IMG/VR virus record: IMGVR_UViG_3300019752_000005
Span: 12,626 to 76,625 of that record
Source: a virus
Direction: 5' to 3' (one strand)
DNA: 64,000 bases
This document shows, in pieces, positions 9,352 to 51,904 of the stretch. Position numbers and translations under genes: made by a program. Position 1 is the first letter of the stretch, and each line of letters begins with the position of its first letter. The notes beneath the pieces were generated by a model. The model did not search any database and was not told the DNA's origin. It worked only from the letters and a program-made list of their open reading frames with translations.

Positions 9352-9879
9352 CTAATTATCTTCTACCTTATCAACTTTATTTTTGCTCTCAATCTTTGGT
9401 TTCAAACAATAATACTTAAAAAACACCCCATCCCCCACAAGAGGATGGTAAAATAAAGATACTTTAGGATTAAAGATATCGCGCAATAAACCAATACCAT
9501 ATTGCTTAGGTAATTTAAAGCCAAATGTTTCCGCATAAAACCTGATAGTATCCCATGCTAGAAACTTAAATGTTTTATCTGGGTAATCATATTTAATATC
9601 AACCACTAACACACCACGTTTAACCTTATTTGTGTATAAGGTAATAGTGCTACCCTTGGGTAGTCTTGCACCGTTTTTAGGATCGGTATAATAACTCTCC
9701 ACGCTTGTTTTTAAGGCTTGAGGAAACTCACCATCAGAAAAGTCTTTACCATTATATGATAGTTTACCACTATCACCGTTAAGTGATTCTGTAGCTACAA
9801 AAATTCTATCACTGTTCAATTGACCGCTTGTTAGTGTTGCTGTTAACTTGTGTATAGTTCTATATCTATAGTCGCTCAT
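9352..9879 (-). CDS. hypothetical protein preceded by the CTATATTTTA motif
   Basis: AGGA RBS; CTATATTTTA (reverse complement) at 9921-9930; terminator-like hairpin at ~9317-9346. Confidence 0.65.
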   Translation of the reverse strand: MSDYRYRTIHKLTATLTSGQLNSDRIFVATESLNGDSGKLSYNGKDFSDGEFPQALKTSVESYYTDPKNGARLPKGSTITLYTNKVKRGVLVVDIKYDYPDKTFKFLAWDTIRFYAETFGFKLPKQYGIGLLRDIFNPKVSLFYHPLVGDGVFFKYYCLKPKIESKNKVDKVEDN

Positions 9880-9941
9880 AAGTATTCCTTTTGTTTAAGG
9901 ATGCACATCTATGCATCCTTTAAAATATAGGTTAGATTAGC

Positions 9942-11966
9942 CTAACGTATTGGACATACACCAGTTTTACACTCGTCATCATCGAGAATATCACCACCGT
10001 AGTTATCAATATCAAAAGGCTTAAGCTTTGCCTTATATGATTCGTAACGCTCTTTGGTCACCACCTCTTGTGGTAAGTAGCTATAACCTAGGTCACGGGC
10101 TGTCTTTGTTGGATCATTTCGGAAAATAAAGCTAACACCAATATAGAAATCCCAATTATCTATAAACCAATCTACAATATCCTGCACCTCACTAGCATCA
10201 TAGGAAACAGTAACAGATACATTTTGCTGACACCAATACCGCATGTATTTCTTGTATCGTTCCAATTGAGTGATAGCACTTTCAATATTTATTTCCATTC
10301 CATCAACGTTGGTAAAGTTGATATTATCATATTCAATTGGTACAGCTACAATCACAGATTCAGGCTCATTTGGTAGAGAGCTAACCTCATAACCGCTTTC
10401 TTTCAACGCTACCAACATTTCATCATGAATACTGTATTTGATATTATTGATAATATAGCGTCCAAGTGGTAAATGAACCCCTTCTGTTGTGTCCATACAC
10501 TTAGCCTGCGTCCCCGACGGCTTAACCGTAGTAACGTTTTTAGGGTACGGTGTTCCTAGTTCATCAGCCATTTTATACGCATGGTATGTGGCATGGCGTT
10601 GCAGTGATTCCAATTCGTAACATGATAAGTCATCACGCATTGCAATTCCAGTTAATCCAACGCCACACAACCGTAAATGGTCATTATTTAAATTCCAAGC
10701 TTCCTGTAGGATTCCATCATCTAAATTAACACATGTTTGTCGGTAATTCGCGCGTGACATTATCTCAATTGCTCGTTTCAGCCCAGCAGAATCACCAATA
10801 AATCGACTTACATTAACATCAACTAAGTTACAGAAGCCTTTATTGGGAAGAATAACTTCACCGCATGGATTAAAGCCAGCAGCCCACTCAGCACGTTCTC
10901 TAGCATGTTTAGCATTTAAGAATGCAGGTTCAGAACCACCACTTCGAACCATTAGATTGAAAATATCTTCTAATGTATCGCGCGTCGGTTTATCATGAAA
11001 TAATAAAGAGTTATTACTCTGCTCTCGATGTGAATTACCTTTTTCATACATACCTTCCTTAGCTGTTGCAAAAGAATACCATTCCTCGTCACCAAAATCC
11101 ATGATGGAAATTTCAGCACTACGTCGTGATGATAATGTTGTACCAAGCCAATTACATATATCTAAAATATCAATTTTTTTAAGCAATTCACCTGATCGCT
11201 TATTTAGAATTTGAGCAATATGTTCAAATGCTTTGGCAATTGATACATCACCACTACAAATCCAGCCATACCCTTTCAAACGTTCACCAGCAGGTCTGAC
11301 TTCTGAAAAATCTAACACCAGTTTTTTAGCTGGGTATCTATGCACTAATAATTTACCAATAGACTTAGCCCATGCTTTAGCAGAGTCACCTACTTTAATA
11401 GTCCAAACACCTGTTTTCTTATTAAATGTTTCTACGTTATCTTCATAACCTTTATCCTTGCGCGTACTTCTAACCACTTCAATTTCATTAATATGGCGTT
11501 TGAATCCTGTGAGTGTTCCAACTTCAGGTTTAAACCCTACACCACATCCTTGTAGTAATAACCAGAATAGATCAACGGCATCATAAACAGTGTTAAGTTG
11601 GGTGAAGGCGCAATTGAATTGCGTTGCTTCAATCAACTTACTTAAATCAGTACCACCCAGCCAAAGCGTTCTACCACTAACACCAGCTTTACCTTCCATG
11701 ATTAACTTGCCCATCTCAACAAGTTCTATGATTTGCGAGTTATTCAACTCCTTACCTAATGCGCGTTCCCAAAGCCACTTTTGATGCCGCAGTACTCTTA
11801 AAACCACATCTTTCTTTTTCTCAAAATCATTGAGATATGGGCGACAATAAGAACGCTTAAAAACAAGCTGAGCGCGGAATGATGGTTTGTATTCTGGTGT
11901 GTAATTTAGAATGTCTTCTAATGCAGCTTTTACAGTGGTTGGTTTCAAATTTAATTCCTTTTTCAT
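9942..11966 (-). CDS. nrdJ: class II (adenosylcobalamin-dependent, monomeric RTPR-type) ribonucleotide reductase
   Basis: SGRTLW, FNCAF, GCGVGF, RRSAEI, NPCGE, CNL, TTVKPSGT, and C-terminal CxxGxCPIR redox pair. Confidence 0.92.
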   Translation of the reverse strand: MKKELNLKPTTVKAALEDILNYTPEYKPSFRAQLVFKRSYCRPYLNDFEKKKDVVLRVLRHQKWLWERALGKELNNSQIIELVEMGKLIMEGKAGVSGRTLWLGGTDLSKLIEATQFNCAFTQLNTVYDAVDLFWLLLQGCGVGFKPEVGTLTGFKRHINEIEVVRSTRKDKGYEDNVETFNKKTGVWTIKVGDSAKAWAKSIGKLLVHRYPAKKLVLDFSEVRPAGERLKGYGWICSGDVSIAKAFEHIAQILNKRSGELLKKIDILDICNWLGTTLSSRRSAEISIMDFGDEEWYSFATAKEGMYEKGNSHREQSNNSLLFHDKPTRDTLEDIFNLMVRSGGSEPAFLNAKHARERAEWAAGFNPCGEVILPNKGFCNLVDVNVSRFIGDSAGLKRAIEIMSRANYRQTCVNLDDGILQEAWNLNNDHLRLCGVGLTGIAMRDDLSCYELESLQRHATYHAYKMADELGTPYPKNVTTVKPSGTQAKCMDTTEGVHLPLGRYIINNIKYSIHDEMLVALKESGYEVSSLPNEPESVIVAVPIEYDNINFTNVDGMEINIESAITQLERYKKYMRYWCQQNVSVTVSYDASEVQDIVDWFIDNWDFYIGVSFIFRNDPTKTARDLGYSYLPQEVVTKERYESYKAKLKPFDIDNYGGDILDDDECKTGVCPIR

Positions 11967-12135: not shown

Positions 12136-12849
12136 CTATCCTGCTGCATAATCTCTCAACTTGCTGGCTAATTTTATGAACTTTTCAGGTGTAAAGTGTG
12201 AGTTAGTTAACTCATTGTAATCACCTTTATCAATAGATAAATTCCATTCGTAACCTGAACTTATAATATCACTGAGCTTGAGGTTTGGATTCCATTTACT
12301 CTTAACGTTATCTTCTTTAGGTGTAACTGATACATGGAACTTAATACCATAATCATTATGGTAGCACTTAGCTTTTAACACCCCATCAGTAAATTCCAAC
12401 GGTAAAGGTATATTCTTGGAATTCTTTTTTGCATACTTAGTTAAAATATCAGTTAGATCATTATAGGCGTTAGATGTAATAACACTTAATTCATCGCGAC
12501 CCATGTTAAATCTAATTGTAATGCCAATATTGAAATCATGAACCTCATTAAAACTAACTAGGTCAATGTATTCCCATTTATCACCAGTACTATTAACGCC
12601 TTTAACATGATTAACATCTTTCACTACACAGCCGATAAGGTTACTCTTATCCCCATAAATTCTCTCAATAAATCCACCTTCATTGTTTTGCTGTTTGTAG
12701 TTTGATTTTATCTTGCAATAGTAATTATCTTTGCAATAAACAACAATTCCATGATTCCCCTCAAGAATATCAATAGAGGTGATTACTTTACCTTTAATCT
12801 CATTCAACAATCTTTTGTCTCCATCCCTTACCAACAGGTTCATCTGCAT
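12136..12849 (-). CDS. hypothetical protein; N-terminus is a degenerate homolog of the C-terminal domain of 60962-61789
   Basis: GKVITSIDIL...IERIYGDKSNLIG..W versus GKKLIKIEGL...LVDFEGDAELFVG..W. Confidence 0.55.
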   Translation of the reverse strand: MQMNLLVRDGDKRLLNEIKGKVITSIDILEGNHGIVVYCKDNYYCKIKSNYKQQNNEGGFIERIYGDKSNLIGCVVKDVNHVKGVNSTGDKWEYIDLVSFNEVHDFNIGITIRFNMGRDELSVITSNAYNDLTDILTKYAKKNSKNIPLPLEFTDGVLKAKCYHNDYGIKFHVSVTPKEDNVKSKWNPNLKLSDIISSGYEWNLSIDKGDYNELTNSHFTPEKFIKLASKLRDYAAG

Positions 12850-14319: not shown

Positions 14320-15795
14320 CTAACCAATAATATTTTGTTCTTGCATTAATTTGATACGTCTACCCACTGTTTGGGGTGATGCTCCAATTTCTTCTGCAAT
14401 TTGTTTATTATTTAAACCCATTTGTTTAAGTTCTAATATCCGTTCATTAGAGTATTTACCTCTACCACGCTCAATACGTACAGCAGGAGTTTGATCAATA
14501 TTCGCCATAAAACCAATACCACGGCTTGGCTCAGGCGAAGGTTTATTAGAGATTCTTTCTATATTACCACAAAATTGTGCTTTTGCAGGTGCGTTAGATT
14601 TCCCATGTTGAGCTACAACTGTTTTACCTGATAATGTTTTCGTGTTTCGTGTCCTTGAAAACCATGATCTAACTTTACTTACTGTATCGTCCAGCACAGT
14701 ATTTTCATTAATTTTCTTTTTCCGACTAGTATCAGCTTTGCTCAATTGAAGTACCATATTTCCACCCATAGAATGAATAACGATAAATAGCACAGAAACA
14801 AATACAAGCAAAGCTTGCGATGTTCTTAACTCATTGATATGTATACCTACCATACCAGTGAATATATTAATGAAGTCATTAAATACTTCATATTTTGTTT
14901 TATTGTTATTATTGCTTTCACCATAACCCACAGATTCGCCACTAACAACAGCATTTTTTTGCGCCTTATTCACCTCTTTTTTCAATTCTTGGTGTTTAGT
15001 ATTTAACGTTAATAAATACGATTTACTCGAAATATCCTTGTTAATAGATATAACATCAGGGTTTTTTGAGTTAACTGGGTTTAGGGATTCCATTTCAGAC
15101 CAAGCTTGTTGTAGTTCAGCCTGATACCTTTTAGCAACACCACGAAAATCTTTATTTATTATTGAAGACCCATCCTTAGATAATATTTCCGAAACCAGTT
15201 TACTGGAAAACTCGCCAGCACTATTATTGGCTTTTTTATTTAAAATAGAATTATACACAATAATAGCCTCCTGATGTTTTTTTGTTTGCTCACTTAATAA
15301 TGACTTTCTTTTCAACTCAAGTTCTGATATTGATTGACTAGCTTGAGCAATATCTATTAATTTCGATTTATTTAAAGTTTCAAAATCCTTTAAGTCACTC
15401 CTAGCCTGTTCTAAATCTATTCTAGCCAGCTTAGCTTCTACCGAGTTGGCTGCCGCTTCTTTATTTGATGTATGGTAAACATCTCCAAAATAAATAAACA
15501 TACCCATAACTGATAAAGCAAAGAAGGAAAAGTAGATAAATTTATATATACTAGCAAAAAAGTATTCACCATCTTCATCAGCCTTAAATGCAGCTTCAAA
15601 TAGGTACGGTCTATAAACCACCATATATAAAGCCATACCAATAAAAATTGCCTGAGCGGCAAATTCATTTGATGATAGTTTAGACCAAGCTTGTATTTCA
15701 ATCCACCCTAAACCAAGACCTAATATAAAGTTACCTATGCTAACTTTATTTAATTTTTTATCCTTTTTTCTTTCTTTTAAAGACTTCTTTCTCAC
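14320..15795 (-). CDS. multi-TM, coiled-coil protein with C-terminal HTH
   Basis: 3 N-terminal TMs, coiled coil, a further TM, then ILELKQMGLNNKQIAEEIGASPQTVGRRI. Confidence 0.7.
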   Translation of the reverse strand: MRKKSLKERKKDKKLNKVSIGNFILGLGLGWIEIQAWSKLSSNEFAAQAIFIGMALYMVVYRPYLFEAAFKADEDGEYFFASIYKFIYFSFFALSVMGMFIYFGDVYHTSNKEAAANSVEAKLARIDLEQARSDLKDFETLNKSKLIDIAQASQSISELELKRKSLLSEQTKKHQEAIIVYNSILNKKANNSAGEFSSKLVSEILSKDGSSIINKDFRGVAKRYQAELQQAWSEMESLNPVNSKNPDVISINKDISSKSYLLTLNTKHQELKKEVNKAQKNAVVSGESVGYGESNNNNKTKYEVFNDFINIFTGMVGIHINELRTSQALLVFVSVLFIVIHSMGGNMVLQLSKADTSRKKKINENTVLDDTVSKVRSWFSRTRNTKTLSGKTVVAQHGKSNAPAKAQFCGNIERISNKPSPEPSRGIGFMANIDQTPAVRIERGRGKYSNERILELKQMGLNNKQIAEEIGASPQTVGRRIKLMQEQNIIG

Positions 15796-15806
15796 TACAT
15801 AATCCC

Positions 15807-17075
15807 CTAATAATTAATTGTTGATTCTAACTTAAGCCACTCGTCGGCTATACTATCATTATAAAATTGAACATGAATATGCCCACCTGTTGCCTTACTA
15901 CTTGGGAACCTGTATTCATCCAACACAGTAACACATTTACCCTTACGCTTTGTTTCACAGAAACCTTTAAAATAATTCTTTATCATATCCGTAACCTCTT
16001 TGCTTTTATGTTTGTTAGTGATAATAAGATCAATAGCTAATCCTTTACGATGCTTGCTATTATTATTGTATTTCCAATGGTGACCGTCATTAAACGCACT
16101 AAACCATTTCAACTTATCACCTAAATCCTTTTGTATTTTGTGAGCTAAATGAGTGATAGCTAGATGATGTTTCCCACCTTCGTATGCTTCAGGACTATTA
16201 ATTTTTAATCCTTTTAATGTTTTATTGAAGTTATGGTTTAACCAGTTGTTAGTAATAGTTTTAACATAATTAATTGTTTCAGGGTATTTTGTTAGTGCCC
16301 CTCTTTTCACACCTTGTAATCCTGCATTATACGAACCTAACGCATGTCTAACCGCTTTAACGTGATCCGATGGAAACTCTTTATCCCAAATAACCAATAA
16401 GTGCTTGAATATAGTTGCTCCACAAGTCAAGCTGGTATCAACATCAAATAGCTTATTGGCATCATCAATACCACAACCACCATTAGCTACTGAGTCTTTA
16501 GCTGTAGATGGTAGTACCTGAGTTAACCCTCTTGCACCAGCTTTACTAATAGCTCTTGGGGAAAAGATACTTTCTTTATGGATTAGGTAATGAAACAATA
16601 TTGGGTCAATACCATACTGTCTAGCCACTAACTCAGCTTTTAATTTATTCTTCTTTAGATTTAATTCAAAATATTCTGGTAAACCAGCATAATTATAGAT
16701 TGCATTGTTTAACGCTCTCCCCTTTTGATCACCTTGATATAATCTACCTTTTGCTGAATCCTTTACAACCAAGGCAGCATCAATCACATCTGGTGTTAAG
16801 TGTGGGTGCTCGTTCTTAATCTTATTCATTTTATCCTCAATTAAAGCAATCTGTTTTTTTAAATTGGATAAATCGCTATCAATCACTTTAACTTTCCATT
16901 CTTTATTCTCAACCTTTATCTTATGTGGTATATCTTCACCCGCAAGATATACAGCTAAAACTAGGATGCATGGCATCCCAACACTAAATATTCCACCATA
17001 AATACTTTTTGATTTCAGAAATGTATAGGATGCCCATGCTACAAACAAAATCCCTAATACAATTTTTAACCACAT
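15807..17075 (-). CDS. membrane-anchored lysin: SLT lytic transglycosylase plus M15-like Zn peptidase
   Basis: N-terminal TMs. SLT motifs IHKES, GARGLTQV, ALGSYNAG, PETINYV. C-terminal SKHRKGLAID...GHIHV. Confidence 0.8.
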   Translation of the reverse strand: MWLKIVLGILFVAWASYTFLKSKSIYGGIFSVGMPCILVLAVYLAGEDIPHKIKVENKEWKVKVIDSDLSNLKKQIALIEDKMNKIKNEHPHLTPDVIDAALVVKDSAKGRLYQGDQKGRALNNAIYNYAGLPEYFELNLKKNKLKAELVARQYGIDPILFHYLIHKESIFSPRAISKAGARGLTQVLPSTAKDSVANGGCGIDDANKLFDVDTSLTCGATIFKHLLVIWDKEFPSDHVKAVRHALGSYNAGLQGVKRGALTKYPETINYVKTITNNWLNHNFNKTLKGLKINSPEAYEGGKHHLAITHLAHKIQKDLGDKLKWFSAFNDGHHWKYNNNSKHRKGLAIDLIITNKHKSKEVTDMIKNYFKGFCETKRKGKCVTVLDEYRFPSSKATGGHIHVQFYNDSIADEWLKLESTINY

Positions 17076-17458
17076 TTCACAGCCTTTATTTGTTCTGATA
17101 GTTTATTTAAGTACTTTACTGTAGCCCTCTCATCATTAGCACCTAAATCATTCTCCTTAACTCTATTAATATTATCTTCAACACCCATATATAAACCAGT
17201 GAGAAATTCAGAAAAAAGAGTTTTAAAGTTTTTATTTCCACTTAAGGAACTATGATAACCAGCTAGCCCTTTTACATATTTTATTGGGTTACCATCATCA
17301 CTATATCCGCTTTGTGTTATAGCACTTCTCCGTACATCAAAAGCTACAATAGAACCCCTTAGCATTGCTCCAATTTCATCATAACAATCGACATTATTAT
17401 CAGCAGATAAATTTAATGGAGCTAAAAGTACCACCACAAATAAAACCATCTTATTCAC
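17066..17458 (-). CDS. secreted/periplasmic protein
   Basis: Signal peptide MNKMVLFVVVLLAPLNLSA. Confidence 0.6.
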   Translation of the reverse strand: MNKMVLFVVVLLAPLNLSADNNVDCYDEIGAMLRGSIVAFDVRRSAITQSGYSDDGNPIKYVKGLAGYHSSLSGNKNFKTLFSEFLTGLYMGVEDNINRVKENDLGANDERATVKYLNKLSEQIKAVKCG

Positions 17459-17784
17459 ATTATCATCCTTCTAACTAATTCCAAAATTCCAATATTTTCA
17501 CCAGCAATTAACATCATAACTACCATCTTTAATATATCAGCCACAGTTGTCACGATTAGCATCAGTAGTATAACATTTAGCCAATGTAGTACCACATCAA
17601 CTATGGAAAGGAATTTTCCATATCTTGTGGAATTATTAAACCCGCTTTTAGCTTTGTTGGAATAATTCCTTATATCATTTATAAATATTTTGGAATCACG
17701 TTTCCATCTATCATAAAACAACCTAAACCATGATCTATCTTTAACTGGTACCTGCTGGTTCTTATTTGTCTTTTTCTTTGACAT
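17455..17784 (-). CDS. membrane protein (holin-like candidate)
   Basis: Basic N-terminus, long C-terminal hydrophobic segment; first gene of the lysin operon. Confidence 0.45.
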   Translation of the reverse strand: MSKKKTNKNQQVPVKDRSWFRLFYDRWKRDSKIFINDIRNYSNKAKSGFNNSTRYGKFLSIVDVVLHWLNVILLMLIVTTVADILKMVVMMLIAGENIGILELVRRMIM

Positions 17785-18438
17785 TAAATAAACCTAAATG
17801 TTATATTGGAAGCAACCAACACTTGAAAGTTGATTCCAATATTGTTAACAGATCATTGCATGGAATTATACCAACTTTTCAATTCCAAAGTCAATATTTT
17901 TATGGAATTAAATTCCATAACTTTTACTTATGGTTTTGTAGCGGAATCGTTATACATGGAATCGCTTATATAACAATGAGTTGTATTATAGAATTCCATT
18001 TAATATGGAATATTCCACTATATTTTATATTTTAGAAGGAATTCCATAATGCCGATTCCATTGGAAGTATTCAATAATGCGCGTGATATAGTGCATGAAC
18101 AGTTTAGTAACTTTGATCATAGTTGCGTTTTAAAATTCCATCAAGATAGCACATTTAATATCGAAACAGGAAAGGAGGAAGCGATAGGTGTGCAGTCTTA
18201 TGAATTTAAAGCTAAGAGGTTTAACTACACCAAGAAGGAGATGAATGACTTTAATTTTTCTGTATCAGATTTTAAGTTAAATGTTAATTTTGATTCCATT
18301 CCACTGGAACTACAGAACGTAATCAAAGATAAGAATGATTCCAACAAAATAATCCAGGTTGGAACTGTGGTTGTTGATGATGATTTGGTTATGCAGGTTG
18401 AAGATATAGTTGTGTTACCAAAATACATAAACATGGAA
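17479..18438. repeat. dense field of TGGAA/TTCCA pentamers (~28 copies, both orientations)
   Basis: Manual count. Includes palindromes TGGAATATTCCA (18006-18017), TATGGAAT-taa-ATTCCATA (17901-17919) and TTCCATTGGAA (18056-18066). Confidence 0.8.
18018..18027 (+). promoter_or_regulatory. putative late-promoter motif CTATATTTTA
   Basis: Identical 10-mer upstream of the head-closure-like gene, TerS and portal. Confidence 0.55.
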
Positions 18439-18459
18439 ATATTTCTTAGGCAGCAATAA
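18049..18459 (+). CDS. putative head-closure/head-tail connector protein
   Basis: 136 aa, beta-rich; TFNIETG...NYTKKE...SDFK pattern and C-terminal EIFLRQ typical of siphovirus stopper proteins. Confidence 0.5.
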   Translation: MPIPLEVFNNARDIVHEQFSNFDHSCVLKFHQDSTFNIETGKEEAIGVQSYEFKAKRFNYTKKEMNDFNFSVSDFKLNVNFDSIPLELQNVIKDKNDSNKIIQVGTVVVDDDLVMQVEDIVVLPKYINMEIFLRQQ

Positions 18460-18470
18460 ATTTTAGGTAT

Positions 18471-18498
18471 AAAAAAACCTCAATTAAGAGGTTTTTTT
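18471..18498. terminator. bidirectional intrinsic terminator
   Basis: A7-CCTC-aattaa-GAGG-T7 between convergent genes. Confidence 0.85.
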
Positions 18499-18867: not shown

Positions 18868-19851
18868 TTATTTCATGATTTGTTTTTTGTAAGATTCAAA
18901 GTCAACGTCTTTGTATCCAACTCTGAAATATCGAGGGTAGTTTTCACTTTCAATAGCACTTTGTAATTTTTTACGTGTGTGATGCGTGTCATCTTTTGAT
19001 GCAGCGTCGCTTAATGTTTTAAAAACTCCGTTAGGTGTTACAAGCAAATAACTGATATCAGGGATAGGTTGATACTTATCTGGGTTAACAATAAAATCTT
19101 GTAATAAATACTTGTCAAGCAGTTTACGATAACCTTTCTGTTTTCCATTAACACTATACCATTTAGACCATAATGATGAAGTGACATTCTTTTCTAAATA
19201 ATCACTTGAAATATCAACACCAACTTTCTTTGGTTGATCTGTTGATGTAAAAATACCATGTGGTGTGACGTACAAGATATCATCTTTAGTGTAGATACCG
19301 CAAAGCTCAAAACTTAAGCGATCAATATCACTAACAATGCTTAGACTGGAAACCATTTCCTTAACTTTTGCTTGATGAAGGTCTTCAATCGTTTTGAATT
19401 TGTTGCCTTTATCATCTAAAACATAGGTCTGATTAGTTTGTTTATTAGATAGCTTTGAGCGTGTTAGTGTGATTGGAAGACTGATAGTGTAACTTTCGTT
19501 ATCACTTTTCTGGCTTGCTAGGTAATCATTAATTAATTCTAACACTTTCTTAGGGATTGTTGTTAATTCTTTCTTGCATTGATTCTTGAGTGATATGTAA
19601 GATTTTAACATCTCCTTATCTGTGATAACTAATTGAACCGATGTAGCTTTAGATGTTTTTTTGTATGATGGATTTAAAGGTAGTTTTTTAACTGAATTTA
19701 AATCAGGTTTCCTGTTTTTCACCTGTGATGATAAAATCAATTCCATTACACCTTTACCAAATGATATGTTTTCTTCAGCACATAAATCAGCAAATAATTT
19801 AGTTGAGTTTGATTTAGTATCGAATGCTATGTTTGTTTTAACTGGTTTCAT
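18868..19851 (-). CDS. putative DNA-binding protein with RHH-like N-terminus and repeated NUMOD1-like modules
   Basis: YVTPHGIFTS, LVTPNGVFKTLSDAA and DDKGNKFKTIED repeats; no nuclease motif seen. Confidence 0.5.
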   Translation of the reverse strand: MKPVKTNIAFDTKSNSTKLFADLCAEENISFGKGVMELILSSQVKNRKPDLNSVKKLPLNPSYKKTSKATSVQLVITDKEMLKSYISLKNQCKKELTTIPKKVLELINDYLASQKSDNESYTISLPITLTRSKLSNKQTNQTYVLDDKGNKFKTIEDLHQAKVKEMVSSLSIVSDIDRLSFELCGIYTKDDILYVTPHGIFTSTDQPKKVGVDISSDYLEKNVTSSLWSKWYSVNGKQKGYRKLLDKYLLQDFIVNPDKYQPIPDISYLLVTPNGVFKTLSDAASKDDTHHTRKKLQSAIESENYPRYFRVGYKDVDFESYKKQIMK

Positions 19852-20333: not shown

Positions 20334-21293
20334 TTAGTTTGGGCAATAGGACACTATTCCACTTGGAATGTGTTTAATATTTACAGCGATATCATTGCAG
20401 TAACGTTTATTGTTCGTGTAGTCAATTAATATGTCATTTTTTATCCTGTGTTGCGTATAACTTATCATTTCAGGTAAGTCTTTTTCATCTTGTAGGATAT
20501 CAGATAAATGCTCTGGGTATAATAAAACAAGCTGGTGTTCACATAGAATATAAATATGCCTCAACAATTCTTTGTCAGTGACCTGCATTAATTCATCCTT
20601 GGTTAACCAAATCTCGTTTTCATGCAGCACCCCTAAAACCTCTTTTACACGTTGGCTAGGTTTTTTACTTCCTAATACATCACGTTTAAATTCATCTTTA
20701 TCAACAATGAAGTCACGCATCAAGCATTGCTCATAGAGTCTATTTATCTTTTCCTTTTTATTAATATTGCCTTTTTTGTAGTAGTGGCATTTTTTCCACT
20801 CCCTATCCTGCTGTTGATATTCGTCACAACCATAATTAACACATGTAACACATTGAACGTTACCCATTTGATCTGATGTTAATGTGAATATGTCGATATT
20901 ATCAGGTGTGGGTATTCTCTCCTTAACCACATTATCAGAAACTGGTTTAAAGCCTATATTCATTTTTTCAATAAAAATACTAAGCTCCTGCCATCTTCTA
21001 ATAAGATTAACATCAGAACCTAATGAAGAATATCCGCTTTTATTCCTGTATATTGCTACATATTGCTGTAAAAATTGTTTGTTATTTGTGTGGAAAGTAA
21101 CATCTCCTAAATCACCACCATCAACAAGCTGTTCCAGTATCCCTATAACTATTCTAATCACATGTGGTGGGCTTTTTTCTACAGTGTATTTTTTAATATC
21201 ACCCCCATCTAACGAGCTGTAACCTATGTTATCATCAATCTTGATGTAAAAGTTTTTCATTTTAACCTGCGCCTTTATTAAGATCTTCTTCAC
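20334..21293 (-). CDS. protein with degenerate RNase HI-like N-terminal domain
   Basis: VTFHTNNKQF...NLIRRWQEL...IGFKPV parallels the RNase HI V...TDSQY...N..LW..L...WV segment; catalytic Asp not seen. Confidence 0.4.
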   Translation of the reverse strand: MKKILIKAQVKMKNFYIKIDDNIGYSSLDGGDIKKYTVEKSPPHVIRIVIGILEQLVDGGDLGDVTFHTNNKQFLQQYVAIYRNKSGYSSLGSDVNLIRRWQELSIFIEKMNIGFKPVSDNVVKERIPTPDNIDIFTLTSDQMGNVQCVTCVNYGCDEYQQQDREWKKCHYYKKGNINKKEKINRLYEQCLMRDFIVDKDEFKRDVLGSKKPSQRVKEVLGVLHENEIWLTKDELMQVTDKELLRHIYILCEHQLVLLYPEHLSDILQDEKDLPEMISYTQHRIKNDILIDYTNNKRYCNDIAVNIKHIPSGIVSYCPN

Positions 21294-24659: not shown

Positions 24660-25604
24660 TTAGTTTCCTTCTGTGTTTTTTGGTTGTGTTTGTTGGTTGT
24701 AACCCATTAATTGAGACATTAACATTTTGTTTTCATTCCTTACTTTTTTGATGTATTCATTAAGATCGTCACCTTCATGGAATTGATGGTGCTCAAATAG
24801 AATCTTACTAGGCAATACGCGTGGTTTGCGATGTTTTGCTGGGATATGGCTACCAGACGTTCCATCTGTAAAGATAATAGACACAACATCTTCAATTTTG
24901 TTTTTCTTACCAAGGATTTCCTTATTATTGTTGTCTCTATGAACATGAATCTGAGGATCTTTAGTGATAAAGAAGTTATGATCCGTTAGTTCTGTTAATG
25001 CATTCCAGCATTTAATATTAGGCACTGGTGGTAAATAACCATCAAAGGGTTCTTTGTTTGGTAAACTAATCTTTCTGAATTCTGTTTTACATATAAGAAT
25101 CAGATCAATACCACAAACCTCACAAACACCTATCTTCATTCGTGTTAAGAAGTCTCTCATTTTAGATTTGAACATCTCTGTTGGCTTACCAAAATCATCA
25201 CCAATAGCGTTTACAGTGTTACCACCTAAAGTAGTGTACTCATTAAGCACTTCATTCTCTATCTCAAGAAGGATAACATCGAAACTGTCAATGATAATTG
25301 TGGATATATCCACACCTTCATCACTAATAACTCCATCTTTATCAGTTCCATCATCAATCGCTTTATTCTTAACCTTGGCTAACTCACGAATAAAGTCAAG
25401 GATATCATAACGATTTTTAATCACATTATCAAAATCATTACTATCAAGTGTTTCTGGGTAGAGTCTTGATTTCTCCAAGTTAAAACATAAAGGGTTTCTA
25501 GCAGCCTGAGTCAACTCGGTTTTACCAGAACCACTACCACCGAAAACAAGTGTTAAAGACGGGGTTGAATCCGACTTGATTTTTCTTTTAATACCTAAAC
25601 CCAC
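24660..25604 (-). CDS. Sak4/AAA_24-like ssDNA-annealing ATPase
   Basis: Walker A GGSGSGKT, LE, TIIIDS, AKHR. Confidence 0.75.
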   Translation of the reverse strand: MGLGIKRKIKSDSTPSLTLVFGGSGSGKTELTQAARNPLCFNLEKSRLYPETLDSNDFDNVIKNRYDILDFIRELAKVKNKAIDDGTDKDGVISDEGVDISTIIIDSFDVILLEIENEVLNEYTTLGGNTVNAIGDDFGKPTEMFKSKMRDFLTRMKIGVCEVCGIDLILICKTEFRKISLPNKEPFDGYLPPVPNIKCWNALTELTDHNFFITKDPQIHVHRDNNNKEILGKKNKIEDVVSIIFTDGTSGSHIPAKHRKPRVLPSKILFEHHQFHEGDDLNEYIKKVRNENKMLMSQLMGYNQQTQPKNTEGN

Positions 25605-30803: not shown

Positions 30804-31628
30804 ATGTTCCTAAAACACAAAACAACACGACGTTATAAAAACGGATATAGCGTTGTGATCGTAAAAAGCCGTAAACTATCCCAGATTGCTTTTTATAATG
30901 AGCATGGCGATTGTATAAACGCATTCTATTGTGCTAATAGCAGGGTTAATGAAGAGATTGGGAATTGGGCTGATTTTAATGGGTTGGTGTTGGTTGAGAG
31001 TGAGGAGGAGGTTGTTTGATGGGTGGGATTAGTGTTTTATTAACATCAAGTGTAGACATAGAGCTTAATAATGTTATTGACTACATTGATAAATGGAATG
31101 ATAACTGGTCTTTTCATATTAAAACGAAAAAGAATATTCCATCACTATCACACTTAAAGCGTGGAGAATGGTATGTACTTAGTGGTAGTGAATGCGGTAA
31201 TGTTCGTGAAATTAGGAGTGCAATTATTGAGTATTTCAATTGGCATAATGGAGATTTGCAATGAAAGTTTACACGGTTAAGGTTAAATATAGAAATGGAT
31301 TTACAGAGTGCATTTCGTTAAATATAATTAGTAAGGAGAGGGTGTGATGCCTGATATAAGTTTTTACACGGTCAAGATTACCACAGCTAATGGAGTAACC
31401 ACCAAAGTTCCATTTCATTTTATGGAAAGTCATCACACAGATGATAGCGGGTTATCAATAAGAATGATTATGGGATATTATGATCACACCGTGGATGATG
31501 GCGTATTTAAGACGTATGATAATTGCGGCTACTACACATTAACCCCTGATAACTGTATAAATTACGAAGAGGTGAGAAACATTATTAGTAACTTTTTCAA
31601 TCTAGCTTGGGTATGCGTAAATGAGTAG
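30804..31628 (+). other. three small hypothetical CDSs (30804-31019, 31016-31264, 31344-31628)
   Basis: Closely spaced short ORFs with RBSs; the first two overlap. Confidence 0.55.
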
Positions 31629-31857
31629 AGACATTGAGTTTCAGCGTAGTGAGTTGTTATTTAATCTCACTGAAGATATTCTTGTTCATATGGAGGATAA
31701 TAATATCACTAAACTTGATTTAACCAGAAAAATCAATAAATCTGGACTATGGGTTACTAGGTTTTTTAATGGGGATATAGATATTACTATCTCCCAATTA
31801 AATGAAATTTGTTTTGCGTTGGGTGTGAAGCCTATTTTTGAGATTAAGGAGAAGTGA
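31621..31857 (+). CDS. XRE-family HTH protein
   Basis: ITKLDLTRKINKSGLWVTRFFNG..DITISQL.EI..ALG. Confidence 0.75.
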   Translation: MSRDIEFQRSELLFNLTEDILVHMEDNNITKLDLTRKINKSGLWVTRFFNGDIDITISQLNEICFALGVKPIFEIKEK

Positions 31858-36337: not shown

Positions 36338-37081
36338 ATGATTTTAAGCAGAACACTAAAAATGCAGCCATGGGAACACGGTTTCATTGAAGGGGAAACA
36401 GAAAAAGAATATAGGGACTTACTAACTTATATAGAAATGGGTGTAAAGCGTTCTTTACGTAAGCTATGGACTGCGAATCATGCTAAGGACGAGAAGAATA
36501 AAGGTACATACCCATCATGGTGGGGTAATAGAGCAAAGGAGTTGAAGTGGGAGCGTAGGGCTATTGCTAACGATATACATAAAACTCAACAGGCTATGAT
36601 AAACGCTCAGAAAGAAGCTAAAAAAACAAATGAAGAAATGATTTATAGGGAAAAACAATGGCTTAGGGTTGTTAGTAAGAAATTAAAACGATATGAAGAT
36701 ATGGCTGATAATAACCAAGATGACCAAATATCACCTACTGATATGAAAGATTTAGGGTTGGCAATGAAAACTGTTCATTCTGAGTTGGAACGCCACCAAG
36801 GATTGGGTCAGTACGATCTAAATGATGTTAATAAGGTAGTGGAATTATCTATGTTAGAACCAGATTGGGTTTCAGATAGTATTGATCCAGAAAAGAAAGC
36901 TGTTAATCTTACTTGGCAGATGTCATCAATAAATCAATTTGGAATGCTTACCAACAATACTAAGCTTGCATTAGGCACAAATGTGTATATGCAGAAGATG
37001 TTAGAAGTTGATGGTGATGAATATATTCAGTCTATAACTACACCAAAGCCGACAGCAACAGTAAGTAGGAAAGATGATTAG
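36338..37081 (+). CDS. terminase small subunit (putative)
   Basis: Directly upstream of TerL; ET..EY.....Y..MG..RSL...W......W..RA...D pattern. Confidence 0.65.
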   Translation: MILSRTLKMQPWEHGFIEGETEKEYRDLLTYIEMGVKRSLRKLWTANHAKDEKNKGTYPSWWGNRAKELKWERRAIANDIHKTQQAMINAQKEAKKTNEEMIYREKQWLRVVSKKLKRYEDMADNNQDDQISPTDMKDLGLAMKTVHSELERHQGLGQYDLNDVNKVVELSMLEPDWVSDSIDPEKKAVNLTWQMSSINQFGMLTNNTKLALGTNVYMQKMLEVDGDEYIQSITTPKPTATVSRKDD

Positions 37082-45983: not shown

Positions 45984-46651
45984 TTTAAAACCTTTATTAG
46001 TTCGTTAGTTATAACCACATCTTGCTTACAATATTCATGCAGTAACTTGAATTCTTTTTCCTTGTACGCATCCCATACCAACGCACCACACATAGCTTGC
46101 TTTTTATAATTCAATGTTTTAGCACCATAACCAAGTAAAGATAAGGACGCGTTATCCATAGAAACACCTCTCTCGTCTGAAATCATTTTCATTACATCAA
46201 CACTACGTGACCAGTACCTTTTACTTTCATAAACTGGAAATAGTTCTGGTACTGGAATATTCATCTTAATAAAAGAATTTCTAAGTAAAAATAGATCATA
46301 ACTTGATGAATTATACCCATACCAGATTGTTTTCAAACACACGTTATCACCCACCCAACTATAAAGTTTCTCCATGATATTTTCTCCGTCGAAGCAATCT
46401 ATGGTGTGATGGGTGTTATCCACATAAACATGAATCAAAATTGGTTCTGCATACAACGGATTTAATGATGTTTTTCTAACTAAATCTTGGTATCTACCAT
46501 CTATAGCATCATCGGTATCCCACGATTCTTTTAAAGCTTTTCTCGTATTGTGCTTTGGCTTGGAATTAATAGATTCCTCTCTAAACTTTTCCAATAACAC
46601 AGGATTACTTGTTGGAATTGCTTCCACGTCAAACACTAATTTTCTAATCAT
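45977..46651 (-). CDS. DEDDy 3'-5' exonuclease (PolB-exo-like, stand-alone)
   Basis: ExoI FDVE, ExoII GYN...YD, ExoIII YCKQDV. Start reassigned to MIRKLV at 46651 (GGGAG RBS) to avoid overlapping the portal. Confidence 0.85.
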   Translation of the reverse strand: MIRKLVFDVEAIPTSNPVLLEKFREESINSKPKHNTRKALKESWDTDDAIDGRYQDLVRKTSLNPLYAEPILIHVYVDNTHHTIDCFDGENIMEKLYSWVGDNVCLKTIWYGYNSSSYDLFLLRNSFIKMNIPVPELFPVYESKRYWSRSVDVMKMISDERGVSMDNASLSLLGYGAKTLNYKKQAMCGALVWDAYKEKEFKLLHEYCKQDVVITNELIKVLNC

Positions 46652-50539: not shown

Positions 50540-51904
50540 TTACACCCTAACTAAGAATAAAGTAGCGAATCCGCTACACTTAAAAACCCCAAATTCGCCA
50601 ATTTTACCAATATAATCACCTTGCACACCACCATAATTAAAAGTGATGGTGGTTACATCGCATTTATCCCCAATAACTATTTTATCTAAAGGAAACCATT
50701 TTAACATTTTACGATAAACGCTAAATACCATTGTGCGGTATTTCTTAAGTAATTCATCACGCTTAATGCGAACAGATAAGTGATAATCAATTTCCCAGTC
50801 ATATTCAAATTTAGGCGGGTTTTGCAATGATTTATTGGAATATTCCAACTCTTTATATAGCTTCTCACACCCTTTGATATCTTGCTGTAAATCTTGGATG
50901 GTATACTTAAGGTGATATTTATTGCTGTCCTTATTTAGTACATTAAGAACAGCGTTATCTATGCCCCCTTTGATATCTACATCCACACCCCATTTAGCAG
51001 CTTTTCTAGGAAAACTATGTGGTGCTAAATCATCTGTCTCAGGAACTTTTAACATCAGTTTTTCTTTGCGAGATTTAAAATAATCTATAATAGATTTAAT
51101 CTCTTTCAATAACCCTTCCATCTCACGCTGTCTAACAATATTGGTATCACATCGATCTTCAACAGATGTTTTTAACAAACTATCTCTCCAATCATCAGCC
51201 ATTTTAACCTCTAAACGAATACTTTTACCACTATTTAGCTCATGATTAACCCACTTCTTTCTATCCTCTTCCACATCCTTCATGGCTTGACGTGCAGCTT
51301 TTGAAACACCATTTTCTTTACCAGCTACAGGCACCTTAATACAACATTGATAGCACCAACTGTGCGGATTAGGAATCCACTTCGATCCCTTTAAATCATC
51401 AATAAATTCTTGACGTATTCGATTATTGCTCTTTTGGCAATTCACCAACTTTTCACGCAACGATTTAGCGTCACTTATTTGATTGTGAATACTCAAGAAT
51501 TTAGAACAACCAACTATACTATCACCTTTATAGTTGAGCGATGATAACTCCATGTATAACCGATTAATCTCGTGACCTATGCTCTTAATATCTTGCTCAT
51601 TAGCGGTAAGTTTGCGGTATTTTTTAGTGGAATTACCTTTTTTATATTTATCGATCATCTTGCGTTTTTTCTTTAATGCAACAATTTCACGCAGCACATT
51701 CTCTATACGTTCTTTCCAGCTATCAGGCACTTTATCAGGTGACCAAATACCAAAACGATTTTCCATAAACGTGATACTTCCCCAGTACCCGTTATATTGA
51801 AAAGAGCCACGGATTAATTTAATAAAACGTTCTTGGCAATCATTGATTCTTTTATCTAGGCGAGCTAGTTTTTCTTGTTTAGAATATTTGTGTTTTTTAG
51901 TCAT
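50540..51904 (-). CDS. basic coiled-coil hypothetical protein
   Basis: 454-aa Lys-rich ORF. Confidence 0.65.
   Translation of the reverse strand: MTKKHKYSKQEKLARLDKRINDCQERFIKLIRGSFQYNGYWGSITFMENRFGIWSPDKVPDSWKERIENVLREIVALKKKRKMIDKYKKGNSTKKYRKLTANEQDIKSIGHEINRLYMELSSLNYKGDSIVGCSKFLSIHNQISDAKSLREKLVNCQKSNNRIRQEFIDDLKGSKWIPNPHSWCYQCCIKVPVAGKENGVSKAARQAMKDVEEDRKKWVNHELNSGKSIRLEVKMADDWRDSLLKTSVEDRCDTNIVRQREMEGLLKEIKSIIDYFKSRKEKLMLKVPETDDLAPHSFPRKAAKWGVDVDIKGGIDNAVLNVLNKDSNKYHLKYTIQDLQQDIKGCEKLYKELEYSNKSLQNPPKFEYDWEIDYHLSVRIKRDELLKKYRTMVFSVYRKMLKWFPLDKIVIGDKCDVTTITFNYGGVQGDYIGKIGEFGVFKCSGFATLFLVRV

Follow-up and report, generated by a model that had tools for sequence, protein, structure and literature searches.

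A one-kilobase array of TGGAA/TTCCA sites around face-to-face promoter-like elements in an uncultured phage: a possible operator field

What is the role of a kilobase of viral DNA in which one five-letter word keeps recurring on both strands? Such a field lies at positions 17479-18438 of a 64,000-nucleotide (nt) stretch (hereafter the window; positions 12,626 to 76,625 of IMG/VR record IMGVR_UViG_3300019752_000005). The window belongs to the genome of an uncultured phage, which consists of one 76,625-bp contig with 34.2% GC. The original prediction, made from the letters of the window, had reported about 28 copies of TGGAA/TTCCA in about 960 bp and had proposed an array for a cooperatively binding protein. 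An exact count returned 28 copies, 13 on the plus strand and 15 on the minus strand, and 13 of the 28 fall within 17807-18066. This array is unique in its genome, is independent of coding, and overlaps promoter-like elements. We infer that it is bound: almost certainly, it is a docking field for one DNA-binding protein.

The enrichment is large by every measure used. Base composition predicts 2.1 copies of TGGAA/TTCCA per kb, and the DNA outside the field actually contains 3.0 per kb. At this density, taken over the remainder of the 76,625-bp genome, 2.9 copies would be expected in 960 bp versus the 28 seen (Poisson P = 1.3e-18). In a sliding-window check of 5-mer enrichment, which the original prediction had suggested, the field stood alone: the next-richest 1-kb window in the whole genome holds 9 copies. 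When all strand-symmetric words of 5 and 6 letters were scanned without bias, TGGAA gave by far the strongest cluster (P ~4e-18). In the same scan ATTCCA was found 20 times versus 1.2 expected, and the next unrelated k-mer reached P ~3e-6. GATC and GANTC were not among the enriched words of the field; the phage methyltransferase is Dam-class, and its GATC word is without enrichment.

Alignment of the 28 oriented copies yielded a site logo of W-TGGAA-T-(T/C), with no conserved flank beyond TGGAA(T)(Y) within ±40 nt. No larger repeat unit was found in the field, and no significant helical periodicity or phasing was detected among the copies, which are separated by spacers of 1 to 69 nt. The lack of a conserved flank and of phasing fits a site of monomer size. 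Orientation alternates in 19 of 27 steps (P ~0.04), and the inverted pairs quoted in the original prediction are all present, including ATGGAAA-GGAAT-TTTCCAT beginning at 17603, the TTCCATTGGAA dyad beginning at 18056, and a palindrome at 18006-18017 that abuts the CTATATTTTA motif. That palindrome, TGGAATATTCCA, has a second exact copy at 50836-50847, within a 454-amino-acid (aa) open reading frame (ORF). Another palindrome, ATTCCA-CT-TGGAAT, lies at 20356-20369, within the 3' end of a 319-aa gene and 38 bp upstream of the start of a ProQ/FinO-like gene.

The field reaches from a non-coding core into both flanking genes, which encode proteins of 109 aa and 136 aa (Table 1). In the 109-aa gene, 8 copies were observed, compared with 1.7 under synonymous resampling by genome codon usage (P < 0.0002) and 4.0 under within-gene synonymous permutation (P = 0.0006). 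The corresponding figures for the 136-aa gene were 9 copies observed against 2.25 (resampling, P < 0.0002) and 3.5 (permutation, with P of a similar order). Shuffling of codon order likewise fell short of the observed counts in both genes. Genic copies outside the field number 142 in sense and 61 in antisense orientation (70% sense), which points to a codon-driven background there. Within the two flanking genes, the pentamer occurs 8 times in sense and 9 times in antisense, and the hexamer once in sense and 8 times in antisense; all five TGGAAT hexamers of the 136-aa gene are antisense. The core itself is crossed by an 89-codon ORF (17766-18035, plus strand), whose codon score of -0.055 resembles that of spurious ORFs (neighboring genes score 0.19-0.5) and which is not a called protein in a 15-billion-protein collection; we therefore regard the core as non-coding. 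Because the excess survives codon-aware nulls in both genes, these results uphold the earlier proposal that the motif running through coding sequence is a DNA-level signal.

The same data bear on whether the field could have arisen by chance, as a compositional side effect of coding, from a simple repeat in decay, or through assembly. Codon usage does make TGGAAT moderately over-represented genome-wide (97 copies versus 54 in shuffles), and in other phages TGGAAT runs occur in tape-measure genes, where they encode Trp-Asn; most pattern matches in IMG/VR were chance occurrences or such Trp-Asn repeats. However, a P of ~1e-18, the use of both orientations, the non-coding core, and the failure of codon-aware nulls to explain the excess all speak against a by-product, the copies do not lie at multiples of 5, and the full stretch is present in two independent sequencing runs. 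The enrichment, codon-null, and sense/antisense results effectively refute this explanation, whose probability we regard as negligible. A sponge of CsrA/RsmA type, acting at the RNA level, appears less likely: the copies are divided between the strands (13 plus, 15 minus), lie mostly in predicted stems rather than loops, and match no Rfam family. The original prediction had likewise judged it less likely, and the strand symmetry of the motif and its absence from other leaders agree.

To what, then, would such a protein be recruited? Within the core, TGGAA and TTCCA form five convergent pairs in a row, separated by 2 to 32 nt. Two sigma-70-type promoter matches face each other here, with predicted start sites ~45 bp apart. 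The 13-copy run 17807-18066 extends beyond the core into the first codons of the 136-aa gene. The -35 element of the rightward promoter overlaps the start codon of the 109-aa gene, and the TGGAA at 17807 overlaps the last base of its -10 element. In the leftward promoter, the TGGAAT at 17861 overlaps the -10 element, and the TTCCA at 17883 lies in the spacer. At the sequence level, TGGAA sites thus overlap core promoter elements of both promoters. Further to the right, a candidate late-type element is formed by CTATATTTTA directly behind the TGGAATATTCCA palindrome, and GGAATTCCA begins 11 bp past the CTATATTTTA 10-mer. Every promoter-like element of the core carries sites.

These promoter matches are rare. 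Only 11 sigma-70-type sites in the whole genome match the consensus at 11 or more of its 12 positions, and the two in the core are the only ones among them with an extended -10 TG. Six of the nine others fall in listed intergenic gaps, and for this reason the promoter class looks real. These six intergenic sites (11 to 12 of 12 matches; 28920, 31300, 35375, 48759, 60129, and 63111) look like the host-polymerase promoter set of the phage.

An alternative is that the core acts at the level of strand structure, through successive hairpins of RNA or of single-stranded DNA that would serve as a structured leader, as overlapping antisense RNAs, or as hairpin priming signals. The core folds far better than its shuffles (z = -4.6 as single-stranded DNA, and z = -5.1 as RNA for the overlapping segment 17810-18060), dyads 1 and 3 (Table 1) pair beyond the pentamer, and the face-to-face promoters would yield an antisense overlap of ~45 nt. 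However, any set of inverted copies of a single word is bound to be self-complementary, and the stems all consist of one shared word, such that sequence, not pairing, has been kept. Several dyads have spacers of 0 to 3 nt and are unable to loop, many copies are single, copies run far into coding DNA, and no Rfam family was matched. We consider a strand-level function highly improbable.

Outside the field, only one other place in the genome has at least four copies within 100 bp. This cluster (46561-46626) lies 36 to 101 bp upstream of an exact CTATATTTTA copy, that of the portal gene. Chance placement within 150 bp upstream of any of the three other exact CTATATTTTA copies has a probability of ~0.6%, for a test that was chosen after the data were seen. 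Other intergenic regions carry the motif at background density, and it is not a general promoter feature.

The reading as control of promoters gains support from the overlap of dyads with promoter elements and from the cluster at the portal promoter. A scale like that of the coliphage 186 switch and the predicted DNA-binding modules of a protein encoded 430 bp away also speak for it. We tentatively favor the reading that the field is an operator array for a phage regulator, on which a large repressing or switching complex would assemble as at the pR-pL, FL, and FR sites of coliphage 186. In this model, one sequence-specific protein would read a single 6- to 7-bp W-TGGAAT site in either orientation and at variable spacing. 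Within the 264-bp core, bound copies would cover the two sigma-70-type promoters that face each other as well as the late-type promoter at CTATATTTTA, and weaker sites up to ~400 bp into both flanking genes would add cooperative, looped, or wrapped contacts. One large complex would then silence both the leftward envelope/replication unit and the rightward 136-aa gene, or else switch between them, and the few sites at the portal promoter would tie the portal gene to the same regulator. Here we infer both the repressing or switching effect and the identity of the binder, for which the candidates are a 327-aa protein and a membrane-anchored helix-turn-helix (HTH) protein encoded at 14320-15795.

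Several observations weigh against an operator array. Twenty-eight to 32 sites over 1 kb are far above the number in most operator regions. The promoters are predictions from consensus matching. The motif is missing from the remaining near-consensus promoters and from two of the three other exact CTATATTTTA copies: none or one copy was found at the CTATATTTTA site of TerS and at that of 9930, and the other sigma-70-type promoters have none. The binder is represented by candidates, with low-confidence models and without family matches. Natural variants also offer little sign of selection on individual sites. In a 136-aa variant with 90% identity, amino-acid changes remove two of the nine copies within the gene, about the rate without constraint. 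Contigs of four sequencing runs were compared, and no RNA run was listed among those containing the phage. In fragments from one of the four, a marine run (X5), ~94 to 98% identical and not covering the core, 1 of 22 listed differences hits a pentamer versus 2.7 expected. From these comparisons, which have low power, single peripheral sites do not look individually constrained.

The gene neighborhood raises a second possibility, that of replication control. To the left of the field, the minus strand encodes the 109-aa protein, a 130-aa protein with a signal-peptide-like N terminus, and a 422-aa SLT transglycosylase, and the unit continues with a 491-aa membrane/coiled-coil protein that ends in an HTH, followed by a sliding clamp and ribonucleotide reductase. 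A C-terminal motif of the 422-aa protein is presumably M15-like, as read by eye. To the right, the lone plus-strand 136-aa gene is followed by a hairpin at 18471-18498 and then by the end of a long minus-strand replication operon that encodes primase, Sak4, dUTPase, SF2 helicase, 319-aa, ProQ/FinO-like, 327-aa, and 106-aa proteins. The hairpin, which has weak terminator-like matches in Rfam, looks like a two-way terminator closing the replication-gene operon on the right. The field thus has, on either side, a minus-strand operon with many replication genes. The label of lysis operon given to the leftward unit in the original prediction is only partly apt: membrane, secreted, and SLT-domain proteins do lead the unit, but it runs on into the HTH protein, the clamp, and ribonucleotide reductase. 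The label of head-closure gene for the 136-aa gene is likewise only partly supported, as its likeness to small phage or virion-type proteins comes from language-model and predicted-structure look-alikes only. Across its genome, the phage encodes three helicases, a primase-like 873-aa protein without Walker A, a Toprim protein, and exonucleases in addition to the clamp and Sak4. No DNA polymerase, integrase, or ParA-type ATPase was recognized among the ORFs scanned (most of those of at least 90 aa), and no tRNA genes were found in the window.

In such surroundings the field could be an iteron-type replication origin, in which TGGAA(T) penta- or hexanucleotide iterons would be read by a phage initiator that melts the AT-rich core, helped by the two strong promoters. 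We regard this main rival reading as possible though rather unlikely. The origins of SaPI and P4 work in this manner. The field is the only iteron-like cluster that the 5- and 6-mer scan found in the genome. Its core, at 26.5% GC, ranks among the least stable 0.2 to 0.4% of windows (99.6th to 99.8th percentile of instability) and is not the least stable place of the genome. The location also fits an origin, within a replication super-module (clamp and ribonucleotide reductase on the left; SF2 helicase, Sak4, and primase on the right) and just past the terminator-like hairpin that ends the helicase operon.

However, the field is not within or beside a recognizable initiator or primase: the helicase gene ends 2.8 kb away, the primase gene is 7.8 kb away, and the primase-like protein lacks Walker A. 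The genes on either side instead encode a probable membrane protein (109 aa) and a protein that resembles those of virions (136 aa). Orientations are not split left and right around an AT-rich center, the copies show no phasing, and the field is longer and richer in sites than known phage origins. There is no DnaA-box cluster, with none of 48 boxes in the field and the nearest at 17066 and 17451. An origin would also leave the cluster at the portal promoter unaccounted for. A GTGGAA reading of the site holds at only 3 of 28 copies. A per-gene GC3/AT3 skew model had no significant replication term anywhere and is hence uninformative. Regarding the DnaA-box-like 9-mers themselves (TTATCCACA, at most one mismatch), the window contains 48 copies in dispersed positions, whereas shuffles give 26.6; within the Sak4-like gene, at 25299-25314, two ATATCCACA boxes overlap as an inverted pair. 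Control of promoters and initiation of replication are not mutually exclusive readings.

Similar arrays in unrelated phages serve as analogues for either function, and a pattern scan of IMG/VR showed that the word itself forms non-coding arrays in such phages (L086 and L109, below). In a high-GC phage (L001:13695-14015), 17 copies of GGCCAC(A)/TGTGGCC in both orientations occupy ~330 bp from the 3' end of a 706-aa gene combining Prim-Pol and AAA_25, looking like a textbook iteron origin. In a 6.4-kb IMG/VR contig (L086:466-700), ~14 copies of TGGAATAA/TTATTCCA surround an (AT)n tract right after the 3' end of an ORF that we take, by eye, to be RepA-like with a terminal HTH. The L086 array has the same TGGAAT core word as the field, although the phage is unrelated; a comparison of its HTH tail with the HTH protein of our phage gave no similarity result. 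That these two unrelated phages carry arrays of like design beside helicase-primase or Rep-like genes favors an origin. In L109:10980-11272, the 18-bp palindrome TGGAATTAATTAATTCCA occurs three times upstream of a 290-aa gene at the contig end, each time with GATACAA-N-GATGGAAT behind it, and these copies look like operators. Together, these arrays indicate that both origin-like and operator-like short-word arrays exist in phages, as analogues and not homologues of the field.

A third function proposed earlier was that of a pac recognition region or a centromere-like site, on which TerS or a partition adaptor would coat the array of short sites. The pac site of phage P1 reportedly uses clustered hexamers. 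The contigs of 76,625 and 76,661 bp form a pair that may hint at a circular or permuted assembly, compatible with headful packaging, and for the omega protein, short repeats in either orientation are known to form arrays that also serve as promoter operators (PMC2441792). Against a pac site stands the position of TerS at 36338-37081, with TerS and TerL 18 to 19 kb from the field, and the lack of GATC/GANTC enrichment gives no indication of P1-style methylation control. As for a centromere, no ORF of at least 50 aa has a ParA-type deviant Walker A or tubulin signature, the scanned ORFs contain no integrase or plasmid-maintenance gene, and the spacing is irregular, unlike contiguous omega heptads. 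We consider a pac or centromere-like site improbable. The array for a DNA-binding protein that the original prediction had proposed is supported, and of the functions it had offered, a pac or partition site is weakly disfavored by the 18-kb distance to TerS and the lack of a ParA-type Walker A motif.

Which protein might read the sites? Our lead, and a lead only, is the 327-aa protein, whose gene lies 430 bp from the field. Both AlphaFold models place two beta-alpha-alpha units at its N terminus (E6-11, H15-26, H33-43 and E71-76, H79-94, H101-113), at low confidence (predicted local distance difference test scores of 35 for the whole protein and 42 for residues 1-125). In the ESM Atlas, the neighbors of residues 1-120 are CopG/Arc/NikA-type ribbon-helix-helix (RHH) clusters, and those of the C-terminal half are I-TevI DNA-binding clusters. 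The N terminus may therefore resemble a tandem RHH, and the C-terminal half may be similar to I-TevI-type DNA-binding modules. If so, a single-chain tandem RHH would account for a monomer-size heptad that is read in any orientation. No match to the protein was found in Pfam, PHROG, NCBIfam, or PDB sequences, and relatives among 1.84 billion representative proteins were fragments only. A Foldseek search of the model against the PDB returned nothing at E ≤ 0.001, the top non-significant rows being chains of the F-plasmid relaxosome. The C-terminal half also contains an internal duplication (LYVTPHGIFTS/LLVTPNGVFKT). Further candidate binders are the HTH tail of 14320-15795 and a Cro/C1-type 78-aa protein at 31621-31857.

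It is conceivable, if doubtful, that the field and the 327-aa protein form a previously undescribed pair, in which a single-chain, multi-module reader with tandem RHH and I-TevI-like modules would read one heptad irrespective of orientation and coat ~30 sites per genome. The array could then act as a replication-coupled titration timer, since each genome copy would add ~30 sites, and the timer would free the strong envelope/lysis promoter only after genome amplification. Alternatively, within the same reading, the field could be the origin of a phage lineage without a recognizable initiator. The remaining probability covers readings other than those considered here, among them binding by a host protein.

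Close relatives of the phage are scarce in current collections. No DNA match was found among INPHARED phages or PLSDB plasmids, no IMG/VR protein relatives were found for the endolysin or the 136-aa protein, and two scans of JGI metagenomes returned nothing. Protein collections of 5.8 billion and 1.84 billion entries contained only near-identical strains (90 to 96%) and fragments at 63 to 69% identity. Two ENA contigs, of 1544 and 8731 bp, would be expected to carry a variant of the whole field or of a part of it. A search with the helicase retrieved only L001 (28% identity), with which it is the sole shared gene. Literature searches for the motif gave no match. With respect to the host, the phage encodes a Cas7d/Csc2-like protein ahead of the window (L002:9639-10622, genome positions 9639-10622), whose closest genomic relatives, at 53 to 59% identity, belong to Competibacteraceae, Thiorhodospira, Candidatus Parabeggiatoa, and Desulfobacteraceae. 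As the runs containing the phage come from microbial mats and a marine source, these relatives give a hint, and no more, of a gammaproteobacterial host from sulfur mats. A pattern of three TGGAAT copies gave no result in four bacterial genomes with the closest Cas7d relatives.

Table 1. Positions of the field, its promoter-like and dyad elements, and associated features (window coordinates)
Feature	Position	Strand	Description
Whole field	17479..18438	both	28 TGGAA/TTCCA copies; 32 counting GGAAT-only variants
Non-coding core	17785..18048		264 bp, 26.5% GC; 11 copies wholly inside
Rightward sigma-70-type promoter (predicted)	17778..17807	+	TTGACA-18-TATATT with TG; 11/12 consensus
Leftward sigma-70-type promoter (predicted)	17865..17894	-	TTGACT-18-TATAAT with TG; 11/12 consensus
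Dyad 1	17803..17842		ATATTGGAAGCAAC-N12-GTTGATTCCAATAT, 13/14 complementary; spans -10 to ~+28 of rightward promoter
Dyad 2	17861..17887		TGGAATT-N13-AATTCCA; in -10 and -10/-35 spacer of leftward promoter
Dyad 3	17900..17920		TTATGGAATT-A-AATTCCATAA, fully palindromic over 21 bp; 6 bp upstream of leftward -35
TGGAATATTCCA palindrome (18006-18017), then CTATATTTTA at 18018	18006..18027	+	Candidate late-type promoter element, without -35
109-aa gene	17455..17784	-	Hydrophobic C-terminal stretch (read by eye); 8 copies, four via Ser-TCC codons
136-aa gene	18049..18459	+	Small virion-type protein by look-alikes; 9 copies
Hairpin A7-CCTC-AATTAA-GAGG-T7	18471..18498		Between convergent 136-aa and 106-aa genes; read in sequence, not listed by the scan that gave the promoters
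327-aa protein	18868..19851	-	Candidate binder, lead only; gene 430 bp from field
Second tight cluster	46561..46626		4 copies in 62 bp; ends 36 bp upstream of portal-gene CTATATTTTA (46662)

Metagenomic phage genomes are annotated almost only by their proteins, and control DNA is overlooked. Here, the field constitutes a statistically unambiguous control element in a 76.6-kb phage without close relatives in the searched collections. It may mark the key decision point of the phage, be this the activation of envelope-breaking and virion genes or the start of replication, and W-TGGAAT offers a concrete bait sequence for finding the responsible protein. Should the field prove to be a copy-number-sensing sink or a new type of origin, a further mechanism would be added to the timing of phage development; should it be an ordinary multi-operator region, it would still be of unusual size and would override codon usage in both flanking genes. 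Short-site arrays as such are already known from switches and origins. What is unusual here is the number of sites, their reach into two genes against codon preference, and their occurrence in a lineage that has no described relatives.

Three known systems frame these possibilities. On plasmid pSM19035, omega binds 7 to 10 WATCACW heptads, in either orientation, at three promoters (PMC2441792). The predicted sites of the field are similar in that a 7-bp site is usable in either orientation and arrays lie on promoters. One omega protein is both a repressor and a platform for a larger assembly, which would fit a tandem-RHH reader if the 327-aa protein is one. In contrast, the omega system has 7 to 10 contiguous heptads and a ParA ATPase, and no ParA motif was found in this phage. 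SaPI origins consist of 6 to 12 iterons of five or six nucleotides that point in opposite directions about an AT-rich center and are read by the winged-helix domain of Rep (PMC9371898). With SaPI origins the field shares very short iterons, both orientations, irregular spacing, AT-rich DNA, and a replication-gene neighborhood (PMC9371898). P4-type origins are alike in these respects; across the SaPI and P4 types, iterons of five to eight nucleotides are recognized by the C-terminal domain of a primase-helicase. However, their iterons lie directly downstream of the rep gene, 6 to 12 in 100 to 300 bp, opposed around one AT-rich center, whereas the field has no adjacent initiator, 28 copies over 960 bp that include coding DNA, and no orientation split.

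The third system is the switch of coliphage 186, where a 14-mer wheel of CI acts on the face-to-face promoters pR and pL, and where the distal operators FL and FR lie ~300 bp to either side of the convergent promoters, 678 bp apart (PMC3675496). Unlike in 186, no CI-like gene, lysogeny module, or integrase was seen among the ORFs scanned, the sites are far more numerous (28 to 32), the half-site word is unrelated, and binding and wrapping at the field are predicted. As in 186, convergent promoters stand a few tens of bp apart with predicted sites on them, extra sites lie ~300 bp to both sides in the neighboring genes, and the whole spans ~700 to 1000 bp with flexible half-site spacing (PMC3675496).

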